A DNA stretch of 64,000 nt from Hormiphora californensis (Eukaryota; Animalia; Ctenophora), in contig CM035356.1 in NCBI GenBank assembly GCA_020137815.1, forward strand, positions 6,510,001 through 6,574,000. The letters are read 5' to 3'. Every line of letters begins with the position of its first letter. Positions within the stretch are counted from its first letter, which is position 1. The position numbers were made by a program, and so were the translations under genes. This document shows, piece by piece, positions 5,623 through 53,061 of the stretch. The notes beneath the pieces are model-generated. The model was not told the origin of the DNA. It was given only the letters and a program-made list of their open reading frames with translations, and made no database searches.

Positions 5623-5776
5623 AATGAGGCCCCTCGGAAATGTTCAAGTCATGCACAATCAAGTCACGCCCACCAATCACAGCTCAGAACGCGCGGAGTG
5701 CTTCGCGCGTTCTGAGCTGTGATTGGTGGGCGTGACTTGATTGTGCATGACTTGAACATTTCCGAGGGGCCTCATT
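5623..5776. mobile_element. Near-perfect palindrome (hairpin MITE-like), ~72-bp arms
   Basis: aatgaggcccctcggaaatg...gaacgcgcg is mirrored by cgcgcgttc...catttccgaggggcctcatt. Confidence 0.8.
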
Positions 5777-16242: not shown

Positions 16243-18016
16243 ATGGACCACCCCCAATTATTGGGACCCATCCACCACCACCACATGGTGGAGCCCATAC
16301 CCTGGATGGAGCCCATAAAAAAGGAGGATAACCTGCCTGTGGTGGGGGGTCCCCCAGGGGCCCCAAATTACACTCCTACTGATTCGTGTAGTGTTGCAGC
16401 AGGGGATGTGGGGAGTCTGGAGGACTTTGAGGTGGAGAGGATTATAACGTGAGTTAGATTGTTATACTGATAACTGATAACCCCCACCCGTCGGTCCAAG
16501 GGTAGATCCTACAACTTTACTCAACCCCTTCCCCCTCTCACACCCAGATATAAGAAATCCATGGGTAGATCCTATTAACTCCTACCCCCTCCTAGATCTA
16601 AAAAGTCCAAGGGTAGATCATACTACTTGATACGCTGGAAGGGATACAACAGTGACGATGATACTTGGGAGCCGGAGGAGAACCTGGCAGGGTTTACCAT
16701 CCTTGATCAGTATAGACGGTTCCATCAGAAACGGAAAAGGTACTTACCATGCAACATATTATATGTATTATATGATCTCCTGGGACAAAGTTTCATTTTA
16801 CAGCGCAGTATTCTTTAGTTAGGTTTGAGTCCCCAAATTCCACTAATATTAATCTCTCCTACGCCCTGTTGCTTTCAGGTGTTCAAGTTCGGATAGCGAC
16901 CTTGGTGATGTGTCACAGAGTTCTTGCGCTCAAAAGGTGGGTTACATTGAGTCCTCAACTAATACAATCCATTACTAGCGTCTAACACCCCTGATACCGA
17001 GTTATTAACACCCTAACTAACACCCTAACTAACACCCTAACTAACACCTTAACTAACACCTTAACTAACACCTTAACTAACACCCTAACTAACACCCCTG
17101 ATACCGAGTTATTAACACCCTAACTAACACCCTAACTAACACCCTAACTAACACCCTAACTAACACCCCACCCCCCAGGTACCGGCTCACTCCCCCCTCT
17201 ACACACCAATAACATCAGGAGGTGCCCCCGTGCTACACCCCTCCGGAAACATCGTGCTAGTGCGACGAGGGAGATCCTCGGGGGTCCCAATAGTCCGTAA
17301 ACGCCGCTCCACCAAACCCAAAGACTACCATTGCACGGTGTGTGGCAAACAATACTCCACCAAATACACCCTCCAATCACACCTACTTAAAGGTGCACAA
17401 TCACAGCGAGTGCCTGATATGTGAGGACTGTGGGTATTTGGGGGATACCAAGGCTAAACTAGACCGGCACAAGGAGAGATATTGTAAGTGGGATGGTAAG
17501 GGTAGTACCTCCTCAACCCCTTCCTCCGCCCACCCCACCACCGATGAAATGTTCCATTGTAACAAGGAGGGGTGCTATGCGCTCTTTAAAACTGAACAAC
17601 AACTCTGGATGCACCAGTGTAAGGTGGTTAAACGGAACCGAACACGGCTAACAAGCGAGGAGGCTGAGCTAAAGAAGATTCACCCCTGTCATCTGTGTGA
17701 GAAGAGGTACGCCACAAAGTACACACTAAAGAGTCACATACGGAATGTTCACGATGGTATTGGAAACTACATGTGCACACAGTGCCCCTTTATAACAGAC
17801 AATAGGGTGTTATTCGATCAGCATATAGCAACTCATACCGGTGAGAAACGGTTCAAATGTATTCATTGCGATTACGGGACAATACAGAAGAACAACCTAC
17901 TGCAACATGTTTCCAAGTATCATAAGGATGGTAGTAGTGGTAGTGGTGGTGGGAATAATAATAACAATAGTCATGGTTCTGGTACTGATAACACTGCTAA
18001 TACTGCTGCTTCTTGA
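16243..18016 (+). CDS. Chromodomain + six C2H2/C2HC zinc-finger protein (one apparent +1 frameshift at ~17390)
   Basis: Exons 16243-16448, ~16596-16739, ~16879-16936, 17179-18016. Chromodomain [38 protein letters not shown]. Fingers CTVC..H..H, CEDC..H..C, CNKEGC..H.C, CHLC..H..H, CTQC..H..H-TGEKRF, CIHC..H..H. Confidence 0.85.
17005..17170 (+). repeat. Intronic 12-bp tandem repeat (caccctaactaa)
   Basis: Directly visible. Confidence 0.85.
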
Positions 18017-24284: not shown

Positions 24285-24317
24285 GAATAATTTGATAGTT
24301 TTGTTGTGTATGATTAT

Positions 24318-27300
24318 CAGGGTGTGAACTGCATGTCGTGTTTGCTAGTCGCGAGCGCGCTTGCGAGACAAGTAAACACGTCAAGGTTCATTAACAAGCA
24401 TGCTGCTCAGTCATTTTAGATTTAATACACAATGTAAGGATACCATGTAATAGGTGATACTCTTGCCATCACCCTCGTTCAAGTCCCGTGAAAAACGGAG
24501 CAGTACACGCAAACTGATGCCCATTTTCCTCGCGTGACCCCGATTCAGCAGTTTGAGACACCAACTCTTTAGGGGGCCATATCTCAGGAACCAGACAAGA
24601 TAGGAAAAATCGCCGTCTAATGAGGCGTACAGTTTTTAATCTAGTTTATCACTGTACCGGCCGTTTCACTCTCCGACCTAAAACAAAAATCGCAACCCCA
24701 CAAAACTTCAAAATAATGAAATTCGCATCTCGCATGTCGTGTTGCATGTCGTGTCATGTTATTGACGCGCTCGCGTTCAACTCTCACACAGCAGCTGCAG
24801 AACATGGCGGGAAACATCGAGGAGTAGAGAGAGGGTCGGTGCCGAATCAAATATTTCTTGATCTTGATCTACTCCATCTCTCAGCTATCCTACCCCTCAT
24901 CAACTCGATCTCTCAGCTACCCTACCCCTCATCTACTCCATCTTTCAGCTACCCTACCCCTCATCTACTCCATCTTTCAGCTACCCTACCCCTTATCTAG
25001 TCCATCTCTCAGCTACCCTACTCCTCATCTACTCCATCTCTCAGCTTCCCTATTAGGGAAGCATAGAGATGGAAACGATTAGGGGTAGGGAATCCCTATC
25101 CATAATCGTTTCCATCTCTATGCTTCCCTAGCCCTCATCAACTCCATCTTTCAGCTACCCTGCCCCTAATCTAGTCCATCTCTCCGCTACCCTACTCCTC
25201 ATCTACTCCATCTCTCAGCTACCCTACCTCCCATTTACTCCATCTCTCAGCTTCCCTACCTCCCATTTACTCCATCTCTCAGCTTCCCTACCTCCCATTT
25301 ACTCCATCTTTCAGCTGACCTACCTCCCATTTACTCCATCTCTCAGCTTCCCTACCTCTCATTTACTCCATCTCTCAGCTTCCCTACCTCCCATTTACTC
25401 CATCTCTCAGCTACCCAACCTCCCATTCACTCCATCTCTCAGCTTCCCTACCTCCCATTTACTCCATCTCTCAGCTTCCATACCTCTCATTTAGTACTCC
25501 ATCTCTCAGCTACCCTACCTCCCATTTACTCCATCTTTCAGCTGACCTACCTCCCATTTACTCCATCTCTCAGCTTCCCTACCTCTCATTTACTCCATCT
25601 CTCAGCTTCCCTACCTCCCATTTACTCCATATCTCAGCTACCCAACCTCCCATTCACTCCATCTCTCAGCTTCCCTACCTCCCATTTACTCCATCTCTCA
25701 GCTTCCCTACCTCTCATTTAGTACTCCATCTCTCAGCTACCCTACCTCCCATTTACTCCATCTCACAGCTACCTTACCTTCCATTTACTCCATATCTCAG
25801 CTTCCCTTCCTCCCATTTACTCCATCTCTCAGCTTCCCTACCTCCCATTTACTCCATCTCTCAACTTCCCTACCTCCCATTTACTCAATCTCTCAGCTAC
25901 CCTACCTCCCATTTACTCCATCTCTCAGCTTCCCTACCTCCCATTTACTCCATCTTTCAGCTTTCCTTCCTCCCATTTACTCCATCGCTTACCTTCTCTA
26001 CCTCCCATTTACTCCATCTCTCAGCTTCCCTACCTCCCATTTACTCCATCTCTCATTTATCCTAACATTCCTACCCCTGAGAGATGGAGTAAATGGGAGG
26101 TAGGGAAGCTGAGAGATGGAGTAAATGGGAGGTAGGGAAGCTGAGAGATGGAGTAAATGGGAGGTAGGGTAGCTGAGAGATGGAGTAAATGGGAGGAAGG
26201 GAAGCTGAGAGATGGAGTAAATGGAAGGTAAGGTAGCTGAGAGATGGAGTAAATGGGAGGTAGGGAAGCTGAGAGATGGAGTAAATGGGAGGTAGGGAAG
26301 CTGAGAGATGGAGTAAATGGGAGGTAGGGTAGCTGAGAGATGGAGTACTAAATGAGAGGTAGGGTAGCTGAGAGATGGAGTAAGTAAATGAGAGGTAGGG
26401 AAGCTGAGAAATGGAGTAAATGGGAGGTAGGGAAGCTGAGAGATGGATCAAATGGGAGGTAGGGTAGCTGAGGGATAGAGTAAATGGGAGGTAGGGAAGC
26501 TGAGAGATGGAGTAAATGGAAGGTAGGTAAGCTGAGAGATGGAGTAAATGGGAGGTAGGGTATCTGAGAGATGGAGTAAATGGGAGGTAGGGAAGCTGAG
26601 ATATGGAGTAAATGGGAGGTAGGTAAGCTAAGAGATGGAGTAAATGGGAGGTAGGGAAGCTGAGAGATGGAGTAAATGGGAGGTAGGGTAGCTGATAGAT
26701 GGAGTGAATGGGAGGTTGGGTAGCTGAGAGATGGAGTAAATGGGAGGTAGGGAAGCTGAGAGATGGAGTAAATGGGAGGTAGGGAAGCTGAGAGATGGAG
26801 TAAATGGGAGGTAGGTAAGCTGAGAGATGGAGTAAATGGGAGGTAGGGTATCTGAAAGATGGAGTAAATGGCAGTTAGGGAAGCTGAGATATGGAGTAAA
26901 TGGGAGGTAGGTAAGCTGAGAGATGGAGTAAATGGGAGGTAGGGAAGCTGAGAGATGGAGTAAATGGGAGGTAGGGTAGCTGAGAGATAGAGTAAATGGG
27001 AGGTAGGGTAGCTGAGAGATGGAGTAGATGAGGAGTAGGGTAGCGGAGAGATGGACTAGATTAGGGGTAGGGTAAATGGGAGGTAGGGAAGCTGAGAAAT
27101 GGAGTAAATGGGAGGTAGGGAAGCTGAGAGATGGATCAAATGGGAGGTAGGGTAGCTGAGGGATAGAGTAAATGGGAGGTAGGGAAGCTGAGAGATGGAG
27201 TAAATGGAAGGTAGGTAAGCTGAGAGATGGAGTAAATGGGAGGTAGGGTATCTGAGAGATGGAGTAAATGGGAGGTAGGGAAGCTGAGATATGGAGTAAA

Positions 27301-28600
27301 TGGGAGGTAGGTAAGCTAAGAGATGGAGTAAATGGGAGGTAGGGAAGCTGAGAGATGGAGTAAATGGGAGGTAGGGTAGCTGATAGATGGAGTGAATGGG
27401 AGGTTGGGTAGCTGAGAGATGGAGTAAATGGGAGGTAGGGAAGCTGAGAGATGGAGTAAATGGGAGGTAGGGAAGCTGAGAGATGGAGTAAATGGGAGGT
27501 AGGTAAGCTGAGAGATGGAGTAAATGGGAGGTAGGGTATCTGAAAGATGGAGTAAATGGCAGTTAGGGAAGCTGAGATATGGAGTAAATGGGAGGTAGGT
27601 AAGCTGAGAGATGGAGTAAATGGGAGGTAGGGAAGCTGAGAGATGGAGTAAATGGGAGGTAGGGTAGCTGAGAGATAGAGTAAATGGGAGGTAGGGTAGC
27701 TGAGAGATGGAGTAGATGAGGAGTAGGGTAGCGGAGAGATGGACTAGATTAGGGGTAGGGTAGCTGAAAGATGGAGTTAATGAGGGCTAGGGAAGCATAG
27801 AGATGGAAACGATTATGGATAGGGATTCCCTACCCCTAATCGTTTCCATCTCTATGCTTCCCTAATAGGGAAGCTGAGAGATGGAGTAGATAAGGAGTAG
27901 GGTAGCTGAGAGATGGACTAAATAAGGGGTAGGGTAGCTGAAAGATGGAGTAGATGAGGGGTAGGGTAGCTGAAAGATGGAGTAGATGAGGGGTAGGGTA
28001 GCTGAGAGATCGAGTTGATGAGGGGTAGGATAGCTGAGAGATGGAGTAGATCAAGATCAAGAAATATTTGATTCGGCACCGACCCTCTCTCTACTCCTCG
28101 ATGTTTCCCGCCATGTTCTGCAGCTGCTGTGTGAGAGTTGAACGCGAGCGCGTCAATAACATGACACGACATGCAACACGACATGCGAGATGCGAATTTC
28201 ATTATTTTGAAGTTTTGTGGGGTTGCGATTTTTGTTTTAGGTCGGAGAGTGAAACGGCCGGTACAGTGATAAACTAGATTAAAAACTGTACGCCTCATTA
28301 GACGGCGATTTTTCCTATCTTGTCTGGTTCCTGAGATATGGCCCCCTAAAGAGTTGGTGTCTCAAACTGCTGAATCGGGGTCACGCGAGGAAAATGGGCA
28401 TCAGTTTGCGTGTACTGCTCCGTTTTTCACGGGACTTGAACGAGGGTGACGGCAAGAGTCTCACCTATTACATGGTATCCTTACATTGTGTATTAAATCT
28501 AAAATGACTGAGCAGCATGCTTGTTAATGAACCTTGACGTGTTTACTTGTCTCGCAAGCGCGCTCGCGACTAGCAAACACGACATGCAGTTCACACCCTG
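24318..28600. mobile_element. 4.3-kb non-autonomous foldback element: long inverted arms with inner 32-bp tandem repeats, CAGGGTG termini, apparent 5-bp TSD ATTAT
   Basis: attat|cagggtgtgaactgcatg ... catgcagttcacaccctg|attat. Identical ORFs on opposite strands (24620..25000 and 27918..28298). Repeat ctacctcccatttactccatctctcagcttcc flips orientation at ~26060-26075. Confidence 0.93.
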
Positions 28601-28871
28601 ATTATGTATCAACTGCAGAGATGGATGATCAGTGGTGTGCGGCCACCCCAATCAATTACCGTCGAATAAGGAGAGAGCGAACCATGTTTTGTTACACACG
28701 CACACACGCACACACACACTGCATCGGGCATAACTCGCCCCTCGAAGACGTCCGGCGCACCAACGAAAAACAGGATCCAATCGCGCGCGAGTTGGACATG
28801 TGCGCGGGCTATATTTGTACGCGCAAAGAACTTACGCGCCGCGTTTTGCTCCGTCTTTGATTTGGAACCGC

Positions 28872-29445: not shown

Positions 29446-32400
29446 ATGACAAAATTCACGAAACTTGGCAACACCAAACTTCAGATAAGCAAACTTGGCA
29501 TCGGTGGTGCTGCATTTAAAGACCATACAGACTCTAAACATGCAAAAGAAGTAGTTGAAACAGCTCTTAAAAATGGTAGGCTCATTTTCCTTTTACTCGA
29601 TAGACCAAAATTTCGGAAATCGGCCCTAAATAATTTTTTAAAAAAACTTCGTTCTCTGCAGGTATAAACTACATTGACACCTCGCCATGGTACAATAACA
29701 GCGAGCGCCTACTTGGAGAGGTTCTTAGTCATGTTAATCGGAACAAATATATCATCAGTAGCAAGTGTGGCCGGTTTTACAGTGACGACATTTTGGAATG
29801 GTAAGAGTAAGGGTATTTTATATTCAGATGAGAACTCATATCATAGCGCTGGCAAGCGCCCGGGGCCCAATCCTCCCTCCCCCAACCATCCTTCCCTAAA
29901 AATGTCCACTTTCCAAGCATTCTTGCTTCCAGTGAATGGAAAATCGAAATTGCGAAAAAAAAAATTTTTGAGTTTTTTGAAAATTTTTGAAAATTTTGAC
30001 AGCGCTACTACAGGGTGTCCCATATATTCTGTGGGTCGGTTGGCGAGCTGTCACGCAAAAACGGTGATAGTTGTGTGAAAACAAACTACGGGAGTGTGCT
30101 GGATTAATTCCTTCCTAACTGATGGCTTTGTTTTTAAATTAAATTTCAAAAGTTCATTTTTCATGAATGAACATTCCTGTCATTCATTCGTGAATTCTGA
30201 AATATTGTTTACCTTGAGTAAAAAACTTTTCTTTGGCTCGAAATTATCTTTCCAATGAGCACCATAAAAATCAAATTGAAGCACCGGATCGCATGGCAGG
30301 TGAGAAAATGCAAATGCATGATTTTGGCCATTCCTGCGACTTTCAATCAGCTGTATCACCGCTACTTTCAGTCCAATCCTTTTAAAAGTTTGGGTGAACA
30401 TTGGTGAAGATAAGATCTTTGCTCACAAGAAAAATCAAGGTCAAAACTCAAAGTTCATTTTTCATTTTTGGTAGTTCATTCCACTCATTCAGGAACAAAC
30501 ATCCCTAAAGTGACGAAAAGGTTTGGGTTTTGTTTGGCCCATGTCCTGAAACGACAGAGAGGTGTAAAAACGTGTTTCCGAGCTAGTTAGTGGGTGTCCA
30601 TGTGATCATTATGATATCTGACACCTTCGCTGAGCCATAATTAAGAGATTTTCTCAAATTCAAACATGGGATACGAGTATTCTGCGATTGGTATCGTGCA
30701 CCAATAACAAGAGATCCCATAGCACCTCAAAAATTATGATTAGCTAAATGAAATGAGTTGATTTACGATTGAAAAGATTAAAACCAATGTAAAGTCGGAC
30801 TAAACGAACATTTTCAAGCGTGAATCAACTCATTTCATTTAGCTAATCATAATTTTTGAGGTGCTATGGGATCTCTTGTTATTGGTGCATGATACCAATC
30901 GCAGAATACTCGTATCCCATGTTTGAATTTGAGAAAATCTCTTAATTATGGCTCAGCAAAGGTGTCAGATATCATAATGATCACATGGACACCCACTAAC
31001 TAGCCCGGAAACACGTTTTTACACCTCTCTGTCGTTTCAGGACATGGGCCAAACAAAACCCAAACCTTTTCGTCACTTTAGGGATGTTTGTTCCTGAATG
31101 AGTGGAATGAACTACCAAAAATGAAAAATGAACTTTGAGTTTTGACCTTGATTTTTCTTGTGAGCAAAGATCTTATCTTCACCTATGTTCACCCAAACTT
31201 TTAAAAGGATTGGACTGAAAGTAGCGGTGATACAGCTGATTGAAAGTCGCAGGAATGGCCAAAATCATGCATTTGCATTTTCTCACCTGCCATGCGATCC
31301 GGTGCTTCAATTTGATTTTTATGGTGCTCATTTGAAAGATAATTTCGAGCCAAAGAAAAGTTTTTTACTCAAGGTAAACAATATTTCAGAATTCACGAAT
31401 GAATGACAGGAATGTTCATTCATGAAAAATGAACTTTTGAAATTTAATTTAAAAACAAAGCCATCAGTTAGGAAGGAATTAATCCAGCACACTCCCGTAG
31501 TTTGTTTTCACACAACTATCACCGTTTTTGCGTGACAGCTCGCCAACCGACCCACAGAATATATGGGACACCCTTATACTTATTGTCTGAAATCGGCAAT
31601 TTCAACTTTGTTTTAGACAACCTTCCCGTTGTCCTACGAACTTGCCGCTTGGTAGTTCGTGTTGCCTTGACACCTAGAGCACACGTTCAAAATTTCATGC
31701 ATTACGAACCACCGTAAAATAACGACTTTTTTGCGTAGTTAATAGAGGCCAGAGTTTTAAAGCTATCACCATGAAACTTTGGGAGTCGGTAGGTCTAGTG
31801 GTGTACCTTGTATTAAAGCTTGGACAGAGAAAACGGACAGTCATAACAAAAGTTATGACTGTCTTAAGTTTTCTTTGGCGTCTAAGACAGCCTTCCGGTC
31901 GTTCTACGAATACGCCGCTTGGTACGTAATGTTGTCTCGACATCTTGAACACACGATCAAAATTTTAAGCAAATCCGAGTTACGGTTCTTCAGTTACGTG
32001 CATCTGACTGTATTAAGATTTAAGACGATTTTCAAAAAAACCTAGAAAAGAGCAAATTAAACTATAAATCATGATTTTATCACATATATTTTGCCAACGT
32101 AGGTCAACTGCTGTATTTTAAGATATAATTGGAAGTCATATCTAGATTTATGACTGTCTTAAATTTAAGACGATTTTAAAAACGCCTAGAAAGAAGCGTT
32201 TCAGAGTCTAAATTAACATTAAATCAGATTTATTTTATAAAATAAGGTTTACTGCCGCATTTTCAGTTATAATTGTTAGTCATATCTAGAGTTATGACTG
32301 TCTTAAATATAAGACGATTTAAAAAAAAAACGAGAAAAGAGAGAATTAGCATCTAGAACCTGATTGTATCAGATATATTTGATTATCAATGCTTATCCGT

Positions 32401-39789: not shown

Positions 39790-40980
39790 CCCCCTCCTAT
39801 ATCCACTATATCAACATTCAGAATGATGCTACATACTTCCCACCCCACCCTCCCTCTATTTTATCTTCTATACCAACATCAGAATGATGCTACATACTTC
39901 CCACCCCACCCTCCCTCTATTTTATCTTCTATACCAACATCAGAATGGTGCTACATGGGGGGGTTCCAACCTATTTGTTGTATGTTTGTACGGAAAAAAA
40001 CAAGCTTTTCCTCAAACAAAAAAATACAAAAAAGTACAAAAAAATACAAAAAAATACAAAAAAATAAAACGGGTTATAAATTATTAAACAAAGCTTTTCT
40101 GATCGTTGAAACTTTAGTTTATGATCATAATTGTGTCATAAATTCCTATTAAACTGTGGTTTCATACAAAATTAGCAACTTTTTCTTATAATTGGAAGAT
40201 AAAAACATCTTTTAATCATGTTTTAATTGTTCTTTATCAAAACACAAGGAAATATTCTATTCAAAATTTTCGAAATCTGTATCAATGATGTTTACTTTTT
40301 CGAATTTCGAATGAAAGATAATAAATACACGACAAACGTTCATAGGTGGTACATTAGCACAAAAGGAACCCGTCCATGAACTACGCACCCACCTCCATAA
40401 TTTGTTGTACTTTTTTTTGTACTGTTTGTACGAAAAATCGGAATTTCTAAAGGTCCCCCCAAACTACTATGTCCCTTGCTGTGCGCGACCGGATTTTAGA
40501 CGGCCATAGCTCCACCCCCTGATAAGATAGAGACTTGAAATTTGTTTTGTAGGGAGATCATATCGAGTTCTTTGTACAAAACAAATTTCAAGTCTCTATC
40601 TCATCAGGGAGTGGAGTTATGACCGTGGGAATTTTACAAACCCGAGTGAGGGACATAGTAGTTGGGGTGTTAGAGTTTGAACACACTCCCCCCCCTCTCC
40701 TATACTCCATACCAACATTCAGAATGTGCTACATACTTCCCAATCCCACCCACTCCTCATTTTTACTCCTTACTCAACCAATTCAATGTGCTACATACTT
40801 CCCACCCCACCCTCCCTCTATTTTATCTCCTATACCAACATTCAGAATGGTGCTACATACTTCCCACCCCACCCTCCCTCTATTTTATCTCCTATACCAA
40901 CATTCAGAATGGTGCTACATACTTCCCACCCCACCCTCCCTCTATTTTATCTTCTATACCAACATTCAGAATGGTGCTAA
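39790..40980 (+). repeat. 62-bp tandem repeat containing acceptor + start (ccaacattcag|aatggtgcta), interrupted by insertions
   Basis: Copies at ~39790-39955 and ~40690-40980; the last copy provides the NDUFAF1 ATG. Confidence 0.85.
40447..40647. mobile_element. Short hairpin-containing dispersed repeat; inverted second copy at 46680-46882
   Basis: catagctccaccccctgataagatagagacttgaaatttgttttgta...tacaaaacaaatttcaagtctctatctcatcagggagtggagttatg. Confidence 0.8.
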
Positions 40981-41728
40981 AGAACTTCGATTGGAAGCAT
41001 TTTGTAAAGTTGGAAAACTGGAAGGCAGCCCTGATGAGGGGAACGTTCAGTACCAAGTATGATATGCGTGTTGTGGAAGCAAAGTTCCGAGAAAAAGATG
41101 CCAGAACGTTGTGGAAGTTTCGGAATGAAGGTGAGAATTAAGCCCAGAGGGGGGGGGGGTCTAAAAAGTGAAGGTGAGAATTAAGTCACACAAAGAACAC
41201 ACACGGACATCTATCCACACAGAGAGTCAAACCAACCAACTGGAACTTCTAGATCATCTAGACGTTCCAGATTGTTGGGGAATGGGACTAGATCAGCCAG
41301 ACTTTATATGACCACTAGATATAATACTAGATCCTACAAACACACACACATTTCTGACCCATATGTTCCATCTATTTCAGATGATGTGGATAAGTTTTAT
41401 ACGTTGGATGATAACATGACAGGAGGAAGATCACTAGTGGAACTATCAACATCCCGTGGCGGCAGACTTCACATGAAGGTTGGTAATGAAATTACCCCTC
41501 CGTGACTTGTTAACCCATGAAGGTAGATGGATTTGTGAATACTTGTCCTATTCTTTTGTTTGTGAATTTGTTTGTTTGTGGACTTGTTCTTATATTTCTA
41601 TGTTTGTTTGCGAATTTGTTTGTTTGTTCTTAGATTTATTTGTGAAATTGTCCTTTGATTTGTTTGTTGTTCACTTACTAATACATGTAATGACATCTTC
41701 GTTTCCCCTAACTTCCAACCATGTCTTA

Positions 41729-41760
<32 letters not shown>

Positions 41761-42522
41761 CCCCTCCCCTCTCTTCCCCCTCCCCTCTCTCTTCATCATT
41801 CTTGTTCTCCTATCCTGAAGAATTTCAGTCAAATTATGTATGTGGTCTTCATTTTAATTGGACATTCACACTTCACACTTTAACACATTCACACATTGCG
41901 TCACAAGCTGTTGGTGATGATGTGATGAGAATTGAGAGAGAAAAAGTGTTATATTAGAGATAGAAAGATAGAGATAGTAAACTTCCAAAAGTAGAGGAAA
42001 TGGTAAATGAAATTGGATTTAGTAAGCTGTAAGACACGTTGAGCTGAAAGATTGTTGTTGTGATGACGAATAAACAATAGAAGATGAAATAAGAAGTTTA
42101 GATCATTGCCAAACAAACCAGTCTGTGATGGTAAATTGATGATTTGGCGAGGAGAAATTTCGGTTTTTAGCTTGATCGAAAAAAGGAATGCCGAAAAGTG
42201 ATTTCTGTTTACGATATAATAGCTTTCTGGTTCAGCAACGCTCGACCAGTCGATCCATTCTGCTGATTTTGCTTGTTAGATCATCAGGAGCCGTTAGTGG
42301 TCCACAGAGAGACGATTAATGAGGGGATGATAGGCAGTTTAGGAATTGGCACTTTATTATGTAATGAGAGATGGTCCGACTATCACAGATCTGTCAATCC
42401 TTCTAGCATATATTCCGTATATTTTCTCGGTCTGTCTCTGTGTTTCAGTCCCCTCTCTCTCTCCTTCGTTCTATCTATCTCTCACCCTCCCTGTATCTCT
42501 CTATCACTCCTCTCACTCTTTT

Positions 42523-42575
<53 letters not shown>

Positions 42576-45500
42576 ATATCTCTCTATCTTTCTGCTCTTT
42601 TGCAATTACAAATCCCACATGTTCCACAACTTCACACCACTACCCACGTTTCAATTCATTAAATCTGCCACCACACAGGGACGGATTGACGGGACGGCAT
42701 CGTATTTTAATACCGAGGCCCGGCCTTGGGATGGAGTGGGATACGCAGGAATCAGATCTTACCCCTTCTCAGTAAGTGTAACACAACAGACAGAATACAC
42801 CATTAATATTGATCCTAACCCTCACAGAGCGTGGTGTGAGTGAGGTGTGAGCCACACTTAACATTAATACAGGCCCGGGTGTTTGAGTTGTGCAGCAAGA
42901 CTTATCTCTTTCTGCACAACTCAACGATCTCGTTTCACACGAGCGATCTTGGGATTTCCCAGCGAACATGGTATATCCAGCGACTAAACCGAAACGAATC
43001 ATAATATGTAACCATAGTTCACATTTAATCTCTATTATTTAATCTCTATTCCCGACTACAATTCCTTCTCCCTCTCTCTCTCCCGCAAAGAGAGAAACTG
43101 TTTTCCAGTTTAACGCTCTCTCTCTCTCTCCAATCTCCCTTTTTTACGGCAGAAATACACTCTCCCCCTCAGTTTAACGCTCTCTCTTCTTTTTTTACAG
43201 AAGAAACGATATCTCTATATACAGCAGTATTTAAACGGGAAGGCCAAATTTAATTTATGTCCAAAGTATGATGTATGCACTTCTGACACGTCCAGCTCTA
43301 GATATTTCGGTCAATCTATTCGGTTTATCAAACTTGTTCAACTAAAACAATGAGTTCACGACTAGCGATGGTTGATGTCCTGGAATAACTTCCTCCATCT
43401 TGTCCATGTCCACTCGCAGATACTCCGGTATATGGTGCTGTAGAAGATGGGGTTTAGAAGGCTGTTGCTAGGCAGCACCGCTAAACTAAACACCTCGTAT
43501 ACAATACCCGGTGCGGCTGCGGGGTTAAACCAGCTGTAGTAGAGAACGGTTATGATGTAGGACAACCAAGCTACCGCCTGACTTCCTATTAGTAGAACCA
43601 GCTTCAGGGCGAGTTTACTGACATGATCGCTGTTATCTAACCCACTTCTGGATGCAGAATTGAAGCTAGCTACCAGGATGGAAATATAGGAGATAAGGAG
43701 GATGGAAAGGAGCACACCAACAACCACACAGTATCCTATCTTGTAGTAGACGTAGCTGGACTGGTTTTTGAAGATGTTAGCAACACAAAGAGGGCTGTTT
43801 CCATAGTAACCAATGCTTAGGTAGTCAAAGATGGAGGGCTTCGATGTGATATTCCGAAGGTCCGCTAGAACGGTATCTATCCCAAGCAAACCCTCACCAG
43901 TTTCAGCTAAAAAGTGGCTGGTATTCTCTGTGACTGTGTTATTATAAGCAAGAGAGTGCATAAACCTCAAATGCTCCTCATCATACCTAAAACAAGATTT
44001 TATGAGATTTGATCAGGAGTAAATAGGGAAGAAACTACTCACACAAAGGAAAAACTACCGTATACTGCTATACTAAACGGTAGTTTTCCTTTGTGTAACT
44101 AGCTCTCCGACGCCTTTTGCGATCGAACACTCTTCCGCCGTAACGGAATTCTACGAAGAAACTACTTACCTAGTAAGGAATGGATTCTCCTGTCCAGAAA
44201 GAAAAACGATGTCCGTCCGAAATACTTCCTGGATCATGACCAAGGGTAGCACTGGGAGGAGGGCATGGGCAAGGTTTAGAACTCCGATCCCCACTGATGT
44301 GACCCAAATGGACCTAATGGAGATGTCCTTTACCAAATCCAAACAGGTCAAGCACCGGATCAAGCTCATCGTGGTAATGAGGAGGAAGGATCCGTGAGAG
44401 GAGAAGGTGAAGAGGCAACCAAGAGTTGAACAGCTGATGCTAGATCTCCAATTTTCATCCTGCTGACAATACTCGCCGATTAAGCGGAGACCTGTAGCAA
44501 CAAGCATCAAAATGACAAGATACAGGCCCATCAGGAAGTCGTAGAATGCCACCTGTATCCTTAGAATTCTGTCAATTTTTCCAGGTTTATTATCCGGTCT
44601 CGTTTTGAATGTTTGGTGTCCTATTTTGATATTTAGGGCGACGATAGCCAACCCTCCTACTAGGCCAAGGACACCTAAAACTTTGGATCGAATGAGGAAC
44701 TTATTGGAACTCAGTTTACCAGTTGGACACCCAGCGCACTCATCCAAGCCATTTGCACAGTCCCTTGCACCGTCACAGACCCTAGCCTCGTCAACCCACG
44801 TCACCAGAGTATCCTCGGGATCGCTGCAATAAAATCTATCGGGGCAGAATAATTCGTCGTGTCCATTTGGACAGTCAATAATGCCATCGCAAACCTTGCC
44901 CATGTCCCACAGAACAGAATACACGTACCTGAAACTCTCAGTACCGAGAAAGCAGGAAAATGATAGCTGCATTGCGAGACCTCCAACGCTTATCTTAACT
45001 CTTTGGCATAATTCTGTAAGCCAAGCTTTGGTTGCGTTGTCACCTATTGACTGGAAAATGTTTGAGCGTAGCACCTGCTCACAAGCTTGCGCCTCTCGGT
45101 GATCCCTCGAACCAGATACCTGCATGTTATTGTACACCCGGATAATGTTCTGTTGCTGCTGGGCCAAAGATTTCTTGAGAGTCTGTGACATTGTGTTGAG
45201 TTCCTTGCAATGGACATCAGAGTAACCCTCACAAGAGAGAAGGGAGACGGTTCTTTGCAGGCCCGCAGAACATATATCTGATTTGGAAATGCATGCTGTG
45301 TAAGACTTATCGGGAAGACACCGAACTGTCACGGCCCCGCTACACATACACTCGTCTGTGCCTCCCTCACAGTTGGCTATACCGTCACACACTTGATAAA
45401 ACGGTATACAACCGCCCAATTTTCCTGGACAGTAAAACACTTCTTCGTCACACTTGCATTCATCAGTAAGGCAGGCACTCACTCCGCTACATTTCACCAT

Positions 45501-48358
45501 CGCTTCGTCACGGGTTATGCCACCAATCACACAGGAGATATCTATGGGAGACTGGAGGAAATGGTAGAGTTTCTGCAGCATGTCGTCAGTGGGGTCTGGA
45601 AACTCGGGTGAAAACTTTCTCCCCGCGAAGTGTATCAGATCAAACACCCCTCGACATTCCAAGGAGTTTCCTGCGAATGGTGTGGCTGCAGTAAAATTGG
45701 AAAACTTCCAACTAGTGTTGCCTTGTCCAGAGCTGATGTAGTTAAGCTGGATAACGATGCCCTCCAGACAGACAACTCTCTCGAAGTCTACGTTATTTCC
45801 ACCAATAGGAGAGTTTAGTGCTCTGATCTGGTACATGGAGCTGGGTGATGCTCCTCCTCCCAGGCAGGCCAGTACTAGAAGAATGGGAGACATTCTGGAG
45901 CTGGTTGAGGCTGGTCACGTAAAACTTGTTATGTTCTAACTCTCCTTTACAGGCAACGTAAAACTAGAAATATGCTTTTAATGTTTTTAGGGTTTTTATA
46001 TCACAATAGTTCTTGTGTTCATTGGACGGGTTGGACTCGCTGGATGTTGTTGGATGAGGCCAGATGTTTCGGTGTTTGACACCATCGTCGGTGGTGGCTG
46101 GGAATAGAGCATATTGGGAATAGGAATCGGAATCGAGATTCATGTCGGAACAATCACGTACTCTCTATCTCGTACTCTCTATCTCGTATGTGATTGTTTT
46201 GATATGAATTTCGATTTTGGTTCCTATTCCTAAATGTGTTCTATTTTTGGCTACTACTGATGATGGTGTTGAACGCCGAGGTATCTGGTTGCATCCAGTG
46301 ATGTCCAGCGAGTCTAACTTGTCCAATGAACACAAGAACTATTATCAATCATGAGACTCAAGAATAGTCAAGCGATACATTATTTGTTTTTATATCACGT
46401 TTACGTATTATAATTGTTATTATACCATACCAGGAGCATGATCACATGTTATGATCACATGATATCACATAACAATACAGTATGAAGTATGAACCCCGAT
46501 AGCTGATTTATCAGTCGTTTGAACATTTAACGTGCACATGATAACTGCGAGCTGGGGGACGTACGAGATAGAGAGTACGAGATAGAGAGTACAATGAACA
46601 CCCTGCTCGCTATTTATTATATGTAGTACAGTCGGACCCCGATTTAGGGGCCCCCGATTTAGTGGCACCCCGATTTAACACTCGGGTTTTGTGAAATTTC
46701 CCACGGTCATAATTCCACTCCCTGATGGGATGGAGACTTGGGATTTGTTTTGTAGGGAGAACTCGACATGGTCTCCTCACAAAACAGATTTCGAGTCTCT
46801 ATCTCATCAGGGGGTGGAGCTATGTCTGTCTAAAATCCGGTCGCGCGCAGCAAGGGACATAATAGTTTGAGAGGACCTTTAGGGACAGGATTTTTTCCCC
46901 CGATATAGGAAGTTAACCTTATTTGACCCCGATTTAGTGGACACCCCGATTTAGTGGACAAGAGCCTTTCCCCCGAGGGTGTCCCTAAATCGGGGTCCGA
47001 CTGTAGAAGCGATAACTACACTCGCCTCCTTTGATTTCTGTAGGGCTTTTCCCGTGCTGAAGGGTGGAAATGAAGGTTCAAATACCGCTGAGTTAAATTA
47101 AATCGCTAATTGAAAAACGCCAAAATGGCCTGAATCGACCTGGGTTCGGATGATAGGTTTTGGAGTTGTGGCTCCGGACTTCGTGGGGATGTCCGCTGGG
47201 ATGGCAATGTGCGCCGGAATTGGATGGAGGCCTAAATTGATTCGTCCGAATTCGGTACGAAAAGCCAGGAAAACTGAATTGTGTTCAGTTCGCCCTTGTG
47301 CATTGTAGAGAGGTTGCTCGTCTGATCGTTCCCTTATCTTTGTAATCGTATACCCTCCCTAAACCATCCCTCGCACCCTACCTCCCTTGTCTTTGTATCT
47401 GAACCACCCAACCATCGACAAATCTACACATTTGAACAGGATAAGAACTCTATGTTTATTGTTTAACTATAATCAATGCAACTGATAAACGCACTACAAA
47501 TGACTCATAATGAATTTACAGTTTTTACATAATGTTTAAAATTCAAAGCTTTGGTTGATTAAGAGATTGCGGGAGAGTAGAACTGAGTAGTACACTATAG
47601 TGTTCCGGCCATAATTATATGGTTTTGTGTCGCTGACTTAGCACGTTTATCGCATGTTACTGTTGGTGAGCAGCCCCCGGCCACCTTCATTTCTCAGCCA
47701 CCTTCACATCCACAGTGAAGTCACTAGATAGGCCCCATGGAACTGTCATTAAGCGGATAGTGTCATGGGGCCTATAATTCAGCCTCACGTCCACTCACTA
47801 GCTCACCGAGGCATTGCTCAGCATATCATACCACGCTCAGATCACGTTCTATGTCTGATCAATTGATGTGAATTGTATATGTTGGGTTGGGCAAATTTGG
47901 AGAAAATCACAAATTCATCACTCAACTGTTCCAGATCATCTTCATGTTCCAGCAAGAATTTCTATTCAGCCACACCTTTCTTTTCAGCTACTTCTCCTTT
48001 TCTGCTATTTTTCATCTCATTCCCCCGCCCTTTCTTCTTTTCTCACTCGTTCCTGCATGCACTCGTTCCTGCATGCACCTCCCCCTTCTTTCTGTTTTAA
48101 TCTTCCCGTCGAGATCTGCAGCAGTTTTGCAGCTGACTCTCCTCCCCGGCTCCCTCCTTAACCTAATTATTTTCAGGACAGTGGCACGATACCATCTTAT
48201 CTCAGTTCTCAAGGTCTCTCCCTAGTAATCCCCTAGTCTGTCCATTCCAGCATTGAACCCTTTTCTCAACTAATTTACCCATTGTCTCAGATTTATTGGT
48301 TCAACCAATTTGAGCCTAGAGGACTGTTTTCGTTTTCCCCCTTCCTTACCTCTGCGGC

Positions 48359-48389
<31 letters not shown>

Positions 48390-48498
48390 CCTCTCCCTCC
48401 CTTATCTCTCGCTCTGTCCTCCTCTCTTTTTCTCCTTCCAGACCTTCTTCTCTCAGCACTATCTCTCTCTCCCTCGCTCTCTCTCCCTCGCTCTCTCT

Positions 48499-48566
<68 letters not shown>

Positions 48567-51500
48567 CTCTCGCTGTTGTCATGGTAATATTATAATAATA
48601 ATATTATTAATATGTCAATGGGAGCCAGCCAGGATCGGATCTTGTCATTATACATTGTGTATAATATTGATTTTATCCTTTTCTTTCCATCTTTCTCTTC
48701 TACCCTCTCTCTTTCTCTCTCTCCCTTACTTCTATCGTTTTACAACACCTGCTAGGGTGCAGTCCCGACCCACATTACCGTACGTAGCTCGTAAAATTTA
48801 GGCTCTTTCTGAAAAAAGAGAGTGGTCGGGACGGCCCTGGCAGGTTCACCCCGCGCTGGCCAAGCGCTGTATAAGGTTGTGCCGTCGGAACTAATGCTAT
48901 CCCAAACTATGTTGTCTAGCTGTACAACCACGCTGCTCTCTCGTGCGACTCTTGATTGAAGAGCAACCATCAATGTTGATATTCAATTAGCAGTCTATAC
49001 TCATGTGACGGAGAGAGCAGGGCTGTGCAGCGTTCGTGTCGAGAAGACAGAGGGCAAGATGGGGCGCGGTGAATTCATGTTTTGTAAGGCAGCCCTTGAG
49101 ATACAGAAACAGAGGTTAACTCCTTGCAAAACTATGGATGCGGAGAAGATACGAAAAAAAAAAAAAAAAAAAACGATATCTCTCTCTCCCCTCAAACTAC
49201 GCGATATGTCACGCACTGTGCTAATTAAAAAAATCCATCTTCACTTCCTAACTCAGTTGTGCAGCAAGACTTATCTCTTTCTGCACAACTCAACGATCTC
49301 GTTTCACACGAGCGATCTTGGGATTTCCCAGCGAACATGGTATATCCAGCGACTAAACCGAAACGAATCATAATATGTAACCATAGTTCACATTTAATCT
49401 CTATTATTTGCCTCCACCCACCCCTCCGCCCACCCCACCCCTCCTCCCCACCCACCTCCCCCGCCTCACCCGTCCCAAAGTAGAGGACTTTCTGAAACAG
49501 GTTACTATAGAGACAATCCTTGTGTTCTAATTCGCTAAGTCGCTTATCGCGTGTAAGTGTGTAACAACTCACAAATATAGTAGCAAAACTACTCCCCCGA
49601 TACTGCTTTGCAGGTACGCTGCCCCTGCAGGCATACATATACTAATTTTTGAGTAAATACTATCTGGTTGAATAACAATTTCAAGATCTAGATCTAAAAT
49701 AAACCTCCGATATTTTTTAATCCCTACTACCCTCCACCCGCCCCGAACCGCCCACCACCAATATATTCATACTAAACAAAACTGTGGACTGAGAACAAAT
49801 CCTTGCTAGTTCAGCCTTCTAACCTAATCGGACTTAATTAGTCCTAATCAGACAGATAGGTCTCACATTACACATATAATACGTACAATACCCGTCCTGC
49901 CACTTATAATGTAAACCTACCATATGCCAGACCAATTCAAGATACTATAATACTATAATAATGAAACCCCAAACACCTAATATGTGGGTGACCTAAAATC
50001 CTAAAAACGGAGGCAAAACCTCGTACAATAACCTATGTAAAACGATAATAAACCACACCGCAGTAGCTATCAGGCTAATCGAGACTAAAGAATAGAAAGC
50101 GACATCCCCTCTTGTCGCAGGGGGATAGAGCCACGGAGCCAAGAATCACAGAAAGAAGAATCAAGATTCTGCGACTCTCGAAGGAGTTTAGTCTCCCGAA
50201 CCCGAAGCCACCTATAATGCGAACCTGTCCTGTGGTCAGTTCCTGATGGTGGGGGAGGGGAGGGGGGCTATTCTCCTAGTGCCGGCGATATCGCTTTGCG
50301 ATAGTCCCCTGTGGGCTTGCCGTTGGCAAGCCCAGGCACTCCGTAGATAGATAGATAGATAGGCCCGGGTGTTTTATCCTCGAACACCAGCACTCTTTTT
50401 CACTGAGTTAAATGAGGAATGTGAACTTGGAAAGTTGCCATCACTGGATATATATTAATCCTAAATATCTCAGGTCATGTTTAACGCACAGACAAATTTA
50501 TACTGGCGACATGATAAATTACACACATTCCTTTGTGTAGCTCACACCGTGTTTAATTTCTGTGAGGATTTCGGTTTAGATCAAACATTTCTCTCTGATC
50601 TTTTTTCTTTCTTTTATTTAAATATTTTTCTGATCTTTTTCTCTCTCTTCAGAAAACGTGGGGTGATCACCAGTTGTATGAATACGCAGTGGATCTACAT
50701 CGCCACCAGCAGTTTGAGTTTCGTGTGAGGGGCGATGGTCGACCATATCGAGTCCAGGTGAGAGTTGTTGATGACATTTCAAAGTTGGCACTCCCAAACT
50801 CACAGTGGTCATCCGACATTATAATTGCCATATCTCGACGTGAACTTCGACGTGGAATTCGACGAGGAATAGCAGGCGTGCCTGCTGTGCGCGGCACATT
50901 GGCACGTGCGGCATGGGCAGCAGGCGTTCATAACTACAAACGCCTGCTATTCCTCGTCGAATTCCACGTCGAAGTTCACGTCGAGATATGGCAATTATGT
51001 CGGATGACCACTGTCATGTGCATGTGATATTTATCGATTTTTACGCACACCACATGTAAACATGTGATAGGCGCATAAAAAACGAGCACACGTACGATAA
51101 GGGGGGGGGGGGTAACAACTTCAAAAAACTTCGATATACACGGTAAACCACTTCAATATTGGGGACAAATTTTCCAGAATGATATATCCTTATTAGGTTT
51201 GATTTAGCATCATTTCCCAATTCCCATGCTAATACAGTATAATATTCATATTGATATGGAGTGATACTCATCATAAAGATAGTATATTGGAGGCATTAAG
51301 ATCTGTGAACTGAGTGAGAAATAGAGAGCAAAATGTGAGAAACAGAGAGAATCGGTAATATATATTTCGTGTATGTCAGCTAATTTCACTAATAAGAGAA
51401 CTATAATACCATGTATACTTGAGTAAGGGAGCGGTACTATACACAGTTTTACATATTTACAAGTATCTTCATTAGTAAGATTATTATATGGGTCCTCCTC

Positions 51501-53061
51501 TTATTCAGATCTTCTGATCATTTTCTGTCCGACTGTACTGTCATATATATGTCCCTAGAATTAAGATTTCAATATATGTAATATTTTCTGCGTTTTAGTT
51601 GTGGTTCAAGTCGTTAGGGGGAGACAATATGAGAGAAGCTACCCGGTTCTGGGTGGGCCACATGCAAACCCGAGGCGGTCCATATTGGGAACGAATAAAG
51701 GTAACTAATATTGTATTGTGTCATTGTGTACTGTTATTCTCCGCTTTGCGGCCTTGTGTGCCGTAAGTTACTAAGTGTATGACAACCGCAGTGGTCTCTC
51801 ACTTGCTAACTAACTTTACTGGCCACTATAACTGCAATATAACTAATGTACTTCACTACTGCAACAAATACTGTACTTCAGACTTCAGTAGTGTAATATA
51901 ACTAATTTGTACTTCAGTAGAGATTCGCCTGTATACAGTGTGTCAAAAGCAGTGCGTCACACAGTACATTAGAATTAGTGTGCCCAATTAGGTGGTATAT
52001 AGGTTGTTACATATTATATTGTTTATCGTATTAAATATCGATAAAATATATCGAAATATATATGACCACCAGTGTTACCAGTAACCGACCGACACAAGTA
52101 AACAACCAATCAGAACTCGTTATTTAGGTCACGTGACTGGTTATCAGCCAATCAGGGACCAGTATTTCCTGATTCGGTCGGTTCCTGAGTTTTACATATA
52201 TTTTCAGATACCGTTCAACCGTTTCTACCCGCTCAAGTATGAAAGGGTTACCTTTATAAAACACAAACCCCCGATGATGAAGCTCTACTCAATAGGAATA
52301 TTCCCCTTCGAGCAGATACCAGGTACTAACATGAAGTATGTATAGTAAGTCACACGTGTATGACTACTTGCGGGCGGCATTCTTTTCCCGTCCAATCATC
52401 TAATGAAGATTGGTTGTTGACTTCTATAACTTCACAACTAGGTTTCCACTTTCCATATATTCAAATGACCTGTGCCAAACAATAGGCCGTGTTTAAGATG
52501 GGTCGCCTGTGTATGAACAAGTCTTTAGTCATCATGGATTCTGAATTATCACACACTGTAGACCTTCCTTGTGTCATCCTCTCTCACTTGTAAAACAAGG
52601 GTTAGAACTTCCAATGTTCGACCCTTTCTCTCTCCGGGTTAGAACTTCCCTTGTTCGACCCTCTCTCTCTCTCTCTCCGGGTTAGAACTTCCAATGTTCG
52701 ACCCTCTCTCTCTCCGGGTTAGAACTTCCCTTGTTCGACCCTTTCTCTCTCCGGGTTAGAACTTCCCTTGTTCGACCCTCTCTCTCTCTCTAAGGGTTAT
52801 AACTTCCCTTGTTCGACCCTCTCTCTCTCCGGGTTAAAAAATATTACATAACATAACAACCTCTATTTACTTCTAGGTGACTTTAACCTAGAGATCGACA
52901 GTATACGGGCACTAACGTCCTTCGTAGATGACGACGCTCTGTGGTCTCCAGAGGCCATGTATAAATGGGACCCCTCCCGTGCTGTACAAATGGACACGGA
53001 GATTTACGGACGATATAGAAAATCTCGGGTGTATAGCAAACATGATCATGTTCTTTTTTAA
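40971..53061 (+). CDS. NDUFAF1: Complex I intermediate-associated protein 30 (CIA30)
   Basis: Exons 40971-41130, 41381-41478, 42679-42771, 50653-50757, 51599-51700, 52208-52322, 52877-53061 all join in phase. Motifs LWKF..DD..TGGRS, GYAGIRS, FEFRVRGDGRPY, TRGGPYWERIKIPFNRF, GDFNLEIDSI. Confidence 0.9.
43362..45893 (-). CDS. Rhodopsin-class GPCR with N-terminal LDL-receptor class A repeats (GRL101/RXFP-like, no LRRs seen), nested antisense in NDUFAF1 intron 3
   Basis: Exons 45893-44170 and 43986-43362 join in phase (NPFLTR|YDEEHLRF). Signal peptide; LDLa motifs VCDGIANCEGGTDE, VCDGIIDCPNGHDE, VCDGARDCANGLDE; DFLMGLYL, WRSSISCSTLG, YYGNSPLC, LPSNSLLNPIFYS. Confidence 0.92.
46005..46385. mobile_element. 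Penelope-like element fragment in inverted (foldback) arrangement with 13-bp TSD and degenerate hammerhead core
   Basis: TSD gtttttatatcac at 45992-46004 and 46386-46398; arms 46005-46160 and 46185-46343; arm consensus gives CTGATGA-tggtgttaaacacc-GAAA. Confidence 0.7.
46628..47005. mobile_element. MITE with TA|CAGTCGGACCCCGATTTAG termini (pogo/Tigger-like), hosting the nested hairpin repeat at 46680-46882
   Basis: tacagtcggaccccgatttaggg ... ccctaaatcggggtccgactgta; internal ccccgatttagtgg repeats. Confidence 0.8.
49256..49409 (+). repeat. ~154-bp direct repeat identical to 42886-43039
   Basis: agttgtgcagcaagacttatc...acatttaatctctattattt at both positions; near-identical spurious ORF peptides. 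Confidence 0.93.
50802..51014. mobile_element. Palindromic MITE, ~77-bp arms
   Basis: acagtggtcatccgacat...gaatagcaggcgt is mirrored by acgcctgctattc...atgtcggatgaccactgt. Confidence 0.85.
52079..52187. mobile_element. Copy of the ~109-bp CAGGAACCGACCGA MITE (opposite orientation)
   Basis: Reverse complement of 21239-21347. Confidence 0.85.
52598..52836 (+). repeat. Intronic ~36-42-bp tandem repeat (gggttagaacttcccttgttcgaccc(tc)n)
   Basis: About 6 copies visible. Confidence 0.85.

Follow-up and report, generated by a model that had tools for sequence, protein, structure and literature searches.

A candidate genomic retrocopy of an ADAR-hyper-edited antisense RNA in the ctenophore Hormiphora californensis

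Introduction

A-to-I editing is taken to be a transient modification of RNA. In plant organelles, retroprocessing of C-to-U edited mRNA writes edited RNA back to DNA, and the original reports of A-to-G hypermutation in avian retroviruses are said to be those of Felder in 1994 and of Hajjar and Linial in 1995. For Rous-associated virus as well as avian leukosis virus, ADAR-type A-to-G hypermutation affecting up to half of the adenosines is described in the accessible part of a later summary (PMC12925331). Another deaminase footprint in genomic retro-copies, strand-biased and clustered, is that of the APOBEC 'DNA-edited' LTR retrotransposons; there, according to the available text, the change is C>U on the cDNA and G>A on the sense strand, is confined to vertebrates and is not tied to a duplex (Knisbacher and Levanon, PMC4866542). 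Penelope-like insertions form a third system of relevance. Their usual anatomy, as given in the accessible passages, comprises inverted pLTRs, a one-sided tail of 30-40 bp and a short target-site duplication (PMC3846280, PMC8557442), with paired hammerheads on opposite strands 100-700 bp apart (PMC3846280, PMC4209133, PMC8557442, PMC11167929). These hammerheads carry an extra base before helix II, a G10.1-C11.1 pair and a palindromic 15.2-16.2 (PMC4209133). The tail, for its part, marks two sites at which reverse transcription starts (PMC11167929). The word 'editing' is absent from PMC3846280. In ctenophores, ADARs and the editing of repeats are documented (PMC4323055, PMC9989829), and write-back driven by deaminases and reverse transcriptases has been proposed as a hypothesis in the part of a review that could be accessed (PMC12941027). 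Among the titles and opening abstracts returned by full-text searches of a largely open-access literature, none reports a nuclear retrocopy that preserves a cellular RNA edited by ADAR.

The locus described here lies in a 64-kb window, that is, the whole stretch of 64,000 nucleotides that was analysed (assembly GCA_020137815.1, contig CM035356.1, positions 6,510,001 to 6,574,000); coordinates below count from its first letter. An initial annotation of this stretch had proposed that a Penelope-like hairpin at 46005-46343 carries fossil A-to-I hyper-editing. As far as the sources could be consulted, the closest precedent found in print is the ADAR-type hypermutated avian retroviruses. As in those viruses, A>G changes are clustered in an inverted repeat and would have been fixed in DNA by reverse transcription, here at a third of the A. 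Unlike the viruses, the locus would derive from a cellular antisense transcript and would be a poly(A)-tailed chromosomal retrocopy with a host gene, in a non-bilaterian animal. The APOBEC-edited retrotransposons are comparable in their clustered and strand-biased footprint, whereas the changes here are A>G on the RNA strand and occur in stems only. Retroprocessing in plant organelles differs in being organellar, C-to-U and an in-place gene replacement that restores coding, while the present case is nuclear, A-to-I, non-coding and at a new site. Finally, in the known copying of host genes bounded by pLTRs, an intron-retaining host gene is likewise copied via RNA to a new site, with a target duplication; here, however, the hairpin of pLTR pieces is carried inside the insert, which is bounded by poly(A) and a duplication, as in LINE-made retrocopies.

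Results

The hairpin consists of a left arm (46005-46161, + strand), an inverted copy of a Penelope-like pLTR piece, a loop (46162-46185, + strand) and a right arm (46186-46343, + strand), the sense pLTR piece. Global alignment of the left arm with the reverse complement of the right arm returned 121 matches, 25 G(left):T(right) pairs, 10 T(left):G(right) pairs, one A:G, one gap and no A:C (35 G:T against 0 A:C, binomial p = 6e-11). The claim that 35 of 36 arm substitutions are G:T-type on the + strand is thus borne out, and realignment returned the same division into 25 G on the left and 10 on the right, with one transversion, one indel and no A:C. As RNA, the + strand is predicted to fold into a single stem (-247 kcal/mol, z = -27) with a duplex length of 157 bp; the corresponding value for the - strand is -155 kcal/mol. 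Of the 35 proposed edits one is open to doubt: 46158:46189 borders the loop patch described below, and this pair may have originated at the junction, in which case 34 edits remain. The outer 23 bp of the stem hold 15 A, all of them unaltered, which runs counter to the editing reading.

The bias of this hairpin is real and local. A symmetric stem search, in which G:T and A:C carried an equal penalty and the satellite array at 24300-28700 was excluded, found 65 G:T and 73 A:C in stems of the window outside the large insert, counts that come from overlapping, non-independent stems. The inverted repeats that the annotation had named as unbiased controls agreed with this picture: all 73 pairs are perfect at 5623-5776, the repeat given as 30011-31575 has a stem at 30012-31574 with two G:T and two A:C, and the 18-bp and 59-bp stems of 50802-51014 are both perfect. 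The last of these is a near-perfect MITE-like hairpin, with 40 A in its stems and no mismatch, that lies one intron further along in the + strand host gene described below. It would likely be an ADAR substrate in RNA and appears unedited in DNA. This speaks against polishing with RNA as a general source of the bias, and also against host pre-mRNA editing copied at large.

The main stem also carries a broken minimal type-I hammerhead on the + strand (46250-46292, core from 46257), which is whole only under the A>G reading. With A restored, it has an extra base before helix II, G10.1-C11.1, a helix II of 5 bp, a palindromic helix III and a helix I of 4 bp. A scan for minimal hammerheads found none in either arm as it stands, none when all sites were read as C>T and one, at 46257, when all were read as A>G; this agrees with the annotation's claim that restoring A at each site rebuilds an intact hammerhead that neither arm has alone, and none of 20,000 shuffles of the arms yielded a minimal hammerhead. 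C>T at any one of 46258, 46280, 46281 and 46289 destroys the motif, and at 46282 it destroys the palindrome of helix III. When the direction was drawn at random for each site, a hammerhead arose in 6% of trials, making the test by itself a moderate one, and position 46255 counts against A>G, since C>T pairs better there (G-C instead of G-U). No whole minimal hammerhead is present in the 64-kb window as it stands, and Rfam returned no hammerhead, only miRNA-like hairpin matches below the gathering score. Judged from the reconstructed core, both hammerhead copies are broken by the edits.

Under the A>G reading, 35 of the 107 paired adenosines are altered, about a third, and they lie in both arms. 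The annotation had recommended tabulating their neighbours, as ADAR disfavours a 5' G. The resulting context is ADAR-like: an A with a 5' G is altered in one case of 21, against 34 of 86 with any other 5' neighbour (p = 0.0016), while a 5' T (15/30) and a 3' G (7/14) are both favoured, and the outcome is the same without the pair 46158:46189. It fits the motif that, in the accessible part of PMC9989829, is shared by all metazoans examined, including a ctenophore. Because this test is partly circular, the rival direction C>T was simulated. The observed context arises in 0.1% of simulations of uniform A>G. For C>T, the avoidance of a 5' G is recovered in 1% of runs when all sites are equally likely to change, and with a five-fold weighting the probability is 0.50 towards CC and 0.14 towards CpG. 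The context therefore fits ADAR but is not exclusive of CC- or CpG-weighted C>T, and alone leaves the direction unsettled. Base composition separates the two directions further, as the ancestor arm has 32% GC under A>G, close to the unedited tail (31%) and the outer 23 bp (35%), and 54% GC under C>T, with a CpG observed/expected ratio of 1.33 versus 0.63 across the window.

A second hairpin in the same region allows the direction of change to be polarised independently of the arms. The MITE-like element at 46627-47005 (no strand assigned) is flanked by TA and has terminal inverted repeats of 29 bp; the hairpin within it, at 46708-46824, has nine G:T and two A:C. In an alignment with three other arms that includes both arms of a paralogue outside the segment (40497-40629), this inner hairpin shows nine private changes, of which six are A>G on the + strand (p = 0.01), compared with none of the three private changes in the paralogue. 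In two of these six the altered A follows a G, and the signal is weaker for that reason. The A>G polarity proposed by the annotation is supported by the hammerhead, the base composition and this polarised MITE hairpin, rather than by neighbour context taken by itself. The two hairpin-bearing repeats as a whole, at 40447-40648 and 46679-46882, are inverted copies that are 88% alike.

If the surrounding segment is a retrocopy, its other long stems would be expected to carry edits and stems elsewhere to lack them. The short stems within it tell little or count against this reading, although short duplexes are poor substrates for hyper-editing. Among them, five short stems have three G:T and two A:C; a stem of roughly 20 bp in the intron of the GPCR gene described below (12 A) and a possible helix between loop and flank (14 A) show little or no change, and the ends of the MITE-like element (10 A) have one G:T. 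A 20-bp hairpin within the insert (47728-47775) carries two G:T and one transversion on the + strand.

The hairpin belongs to a 381-bp insert of Penelope-like anatomy, with inverted arms, a 42-bp one-sided extension resembling the Penelope 'tail' (46344-46385, + strand) and an inner 13-bp target-site duplication (45992-46004 and 46386-46398, + strand), of which these are the only two copies in the window. In the accessible descriptions, Penelope-like insertions share the head-to-head inverted repeat, the one-sided tail (30-40 bp, 42 here), the short target duplication and a minimal hammerhead with the features listed above (PMC3846280, PMC4209133, PMC8557442, PMC11167929); they differ from the present insert, in which no RT or GIY-YIG coding is left and both hammerheads are broken. 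The 381-bp piece contains no ORF of 120 codons. As there is neither coding sequence nor a nameable family, it is described only as a putative Penelope-like remnant, without assignment to a named family. No second copy of the arms is present in the 64-kb window. A direction-neutral 25-base pattern of the arm had no match in viral or in metagenome contigs, nor had a hammerhead-core pattern in viral contigs; these collections hold little animal DNA, and the absences are no argument against a family. A non-LTR retrozyme was rejected as an identity: according to the available definition, such an element has head-to-tail tandem units with a type-I hammerhead in each (bioRxiv 10.64898/2026.07.22.740005), and the copies here are two and inverted.

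The loop of the hairpin has a counterpart nearby. Positions 46158-46191 are the reverse complement of 46559-46592 (33 of 34 matches), a short tandem repeat in the flank (- strand) that lies 173 bp downstream, past the right inner duplication. On the simplest reading, the loop is a patch templated from nearby DNA where the arms joined upon insertion of the element. Since the loop copies the flank, the fold-back would have formed while attached to that flank, which makes it improbable that the hairpin alone was mobilised. Editing of both arms on one strand would then have followed later, on an RNA containing the finished hairpin. Editing of two template RNAs before the Penelope-like insertion was rejected, as the inverted arm would then show A:C mismatches. 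Around the loop-matching tandem repeat there is a 12-bp imperfect inverted repeat (46537-46610), which shares a 10-base word with the right arm, close to the arm's end.

Hairpin, MITE-like element and GPCR gene are enclosed by a 5,954-bp segment (43217-49170, + strand), a candidate retrocopy of a polyadenylated + strand RNA of about 6 kb, the boundaries of which were located by inspection and after the fact. It ends in an A20 run at 49154-49173 (+ strand), the sole run of A or T of at least 12 in the window, whose last three A are part of an outer 13-bp target-site duplication. The two copies of this duplication (43204-43216 and 49171-49183, + strand) are an exact repeat: the 13-mer at 49171-49183 recurs 5.97 kb upstream and nowhere else in the window. 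As a measure of chance, 250 of 46,060 positions (0.5%) have an isolated match of 13-20 bp no more than 10 kb away. Once rejoined, the empty site continues the local repeat unit better than the filled one (score 61 versus 48). Poly(A) and outer duplication were found independently of the mismatches and lie on the same strand as the A>G changes. No AATAAA or ATTAAA is present in the 650 bp before the A-run (48500-49160), and the segment is therefore not classed as a processed pseudogene of an ordinary mRNA; the sole intron seen in it is on the opposite strand and retained. Further out, two identical copies of a 155-bp direct repeat (42886-43040 and 49255-49409) bracket the segment. The repeat has many small stem-loops, and its copies would be about 250 bp apart without the insert. 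This repeat may represent an alternative, DNA-level boundary, either as a small repeat-bounded element or as a second duplication.

Antisense to the proposed RNA, the segment carries an unbroken LDLa-domain rhodopsin-type GPCR gene (43362-45893, - strand; two exons, 782 codons, no internal stop) with a 183-bp GT-AG intron (43987-44169, - strand) that has been kept. With a template antisense to the gene, both its intron and its upstream DNA would be retained. The nearest named relative is from Pleurobrachia bachei (45% identity); other relatives reach 59-60%, and the relatives form a family in ctenophore-like data; taken on their own, they point to a likely ctenophore host. In metagenome contigs, which hold little animal DNA, 33 pattern hits to the GPCR protein gave no confirmed related locus. 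At columns of the coding region that are conserved in two relatives, T>C changes read on the coding strand do not exceed other classes (8 versus 7-14), although this is a weak test. The GPCR gene is nested in an intron (42772-50652, + strand; 7,881 bp, GT-AG, and 1,914 bp minus the insert) of a CIA30/NDUFAF1-type host gene with seven exons (about 40971-53058, + strand), all of which align in order to one CIA30-domain protein. For the first exon a HMMER search found a match and a word search none, and a later exon had no match in the PDB.

Elsewhere in the window, a 4.3-kb palindrome at 24313-28605, has 1.2-kb arms at 98% that enclose an inverted array of a roughly 32-bp satellite, and could be either a real fold-back element or an amplification chimera. 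The inverted repeat at 30012-31574 has 764-bp arms at 99% and a 35-base loop. Two open frames on the + strand are also present: one of 1,067 codons with a long VPVNSPS repeat and a low-complexity tail (11815-15018), and one with several C2H2-like zinc-finger motifs, read by eye (17294-18016).

Discussion

The reading favoured here, from a single locus in an assembly and with a probability of about 0.72, is that the segment is a genomic retrocopy of an antisense transcript that ADAR had hyper-edited. At the source locus, a Penelope-like element would have inserted just upstream of the LDLa-GPCR gene as two inverted pLTR pieces; the anatomy of the arms is apparent, and their joining by a patch from nearby DNA is the mechanism it suggests. 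Antisense transcription across the GPCR gene and the DNA upstream of it would then have produced an RNA that folded into the 157-bp duplex. The pattern of altered bases is that of 35 of 107 A on both arms and six in the MITE hairpin, and ADAR would be the enzyme that deaminated them. The tail and duplication point to poly(A)-primed reverse transcription in trans, likely by a LINE enzyme, which would have copied the RNA into the intron, read I as G and left the 13-bp duplication. The edits are probably passengers without function. The annotation's descent of this DNA from an edited + strand RNA gains support from the poly(A) and the outer duplication, which lie on that strand; the RNA that moved was most likely a transcript of about 6 kb containing the hairpin, rather than the hairpin alone. 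Selection for a G:U-rich RNA structure was rejected: it predicts neither the avoidance of a 5' G nor the loss of both hammerheads, and transversions are almost absent.

It is highly probable that the changes in the arms are A>G edits derived from RNA. Were they instead C>T changes on the + strand of a GC-rich ancestor, made by a CC-preferring cytosine deaminase or by strand-biased decay of methyl-C, they would have altered 14 of the 23 C that follow another C, as well as 16 of the 29 C in CpG, and CC- or CpG-weighted simulation does yield an apparent 5' G avoidance. Such an origin is nevertheless very improbable, given that it produces no hammerhead, implies an ancestor whose composition is unlike the unedited parts and conflicts with the MITE changes, which three other arms polarise as A>G. 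In addition, 21 of the 35 sites fall outside CC, a deaminase acting on cDNA would leave A:C rather than G:T on the RNA strand, and the accessible text of PMC4866542 gives APOBEC-type editing as absent from 19 invertebrate genomes. An APOBEC DNA-edited retroelement was rejected on its own account, as it would give A:C on the + strand and the hairpin arms have none. The edits could also be genuine ADAR edits in DNA with the hairpin as the only unit, either a 381-bp edited RNA inserted by Penelope machinery or cDNA of edited host pre-mRNA by which the locus was converted where it stands. In that case the poly(A) would be unrelated or older, and so would the outer duplication. The 381-bp piece indeed has its own 13-bp duplication and, at its 3' end, a sense pLTR plus tail, which the available part of PMC11167929 describes as the signal where the Penelope protein begins reverse transcription. 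For write-back in place, the hairpin lies within a + strand intron, so that + strand RNA exists there, and the unaltered outer 23 bp may represent the margins of converted sequence. This too is unlikely: the loop matches DNA 173 bp past the inner duplication, which is unexpected if the hairpin arrived from elsewhere, A>G changes also occur in the MITE hairpin outside the 381-bp piece, and the poly(A) and outer duplication share their strand with the edits.

That the A>G edits are truly in the chromosome is likewise quite likely, if a little less firm than their origin in RNA. Polishing rarely places reads that differ by 22% across 300 bp, and contaminating cDNA would come without a flanking 13-bp duplication whose removal restores the local repeat. 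An assembly artefact, in which RNA-seq polishing, cDNA contamination or gap-closing with transcripts introduced either edited bases or the entire segment that ends in poly(A), would have an edited consensus that looks identical, and the intron of the host gene is part of a + strand transcript; amplification can also give rise to long near-perfect palindromes like those in the window (24313-28605, 30012-31574), and systematic errors are known in reference genomes, according to the accessible part of PMC2873906. With the hairpin at 50802-51014 unedited in the same pre-mRNA, we regard an artefact as improbable.

If the favoured reading is true, a retrocopy has kept 34-35 edits of one RNA molecule, and ADAR would be a heritable mutagen. 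It would follow that ADAR is active in the germline-founding cells of a ctenophore and that heavily edited RNA remains reverse-transcribable, and an antisense template would provide a route of gene duplication that retains introns and upstream DNA. The comparison of G:T with A:C requires an assembly only, making the question testable across genomes. More speculatively, and in our view doubtfully, hyper-edited nuclear antisense RNAs of ctenophores may be routine templates for retroposition, writing bursts of A>G into the germline and duplicating genes together with their introns and promoters, and in this way feeding the expansion of the LDLa-GPCR family.
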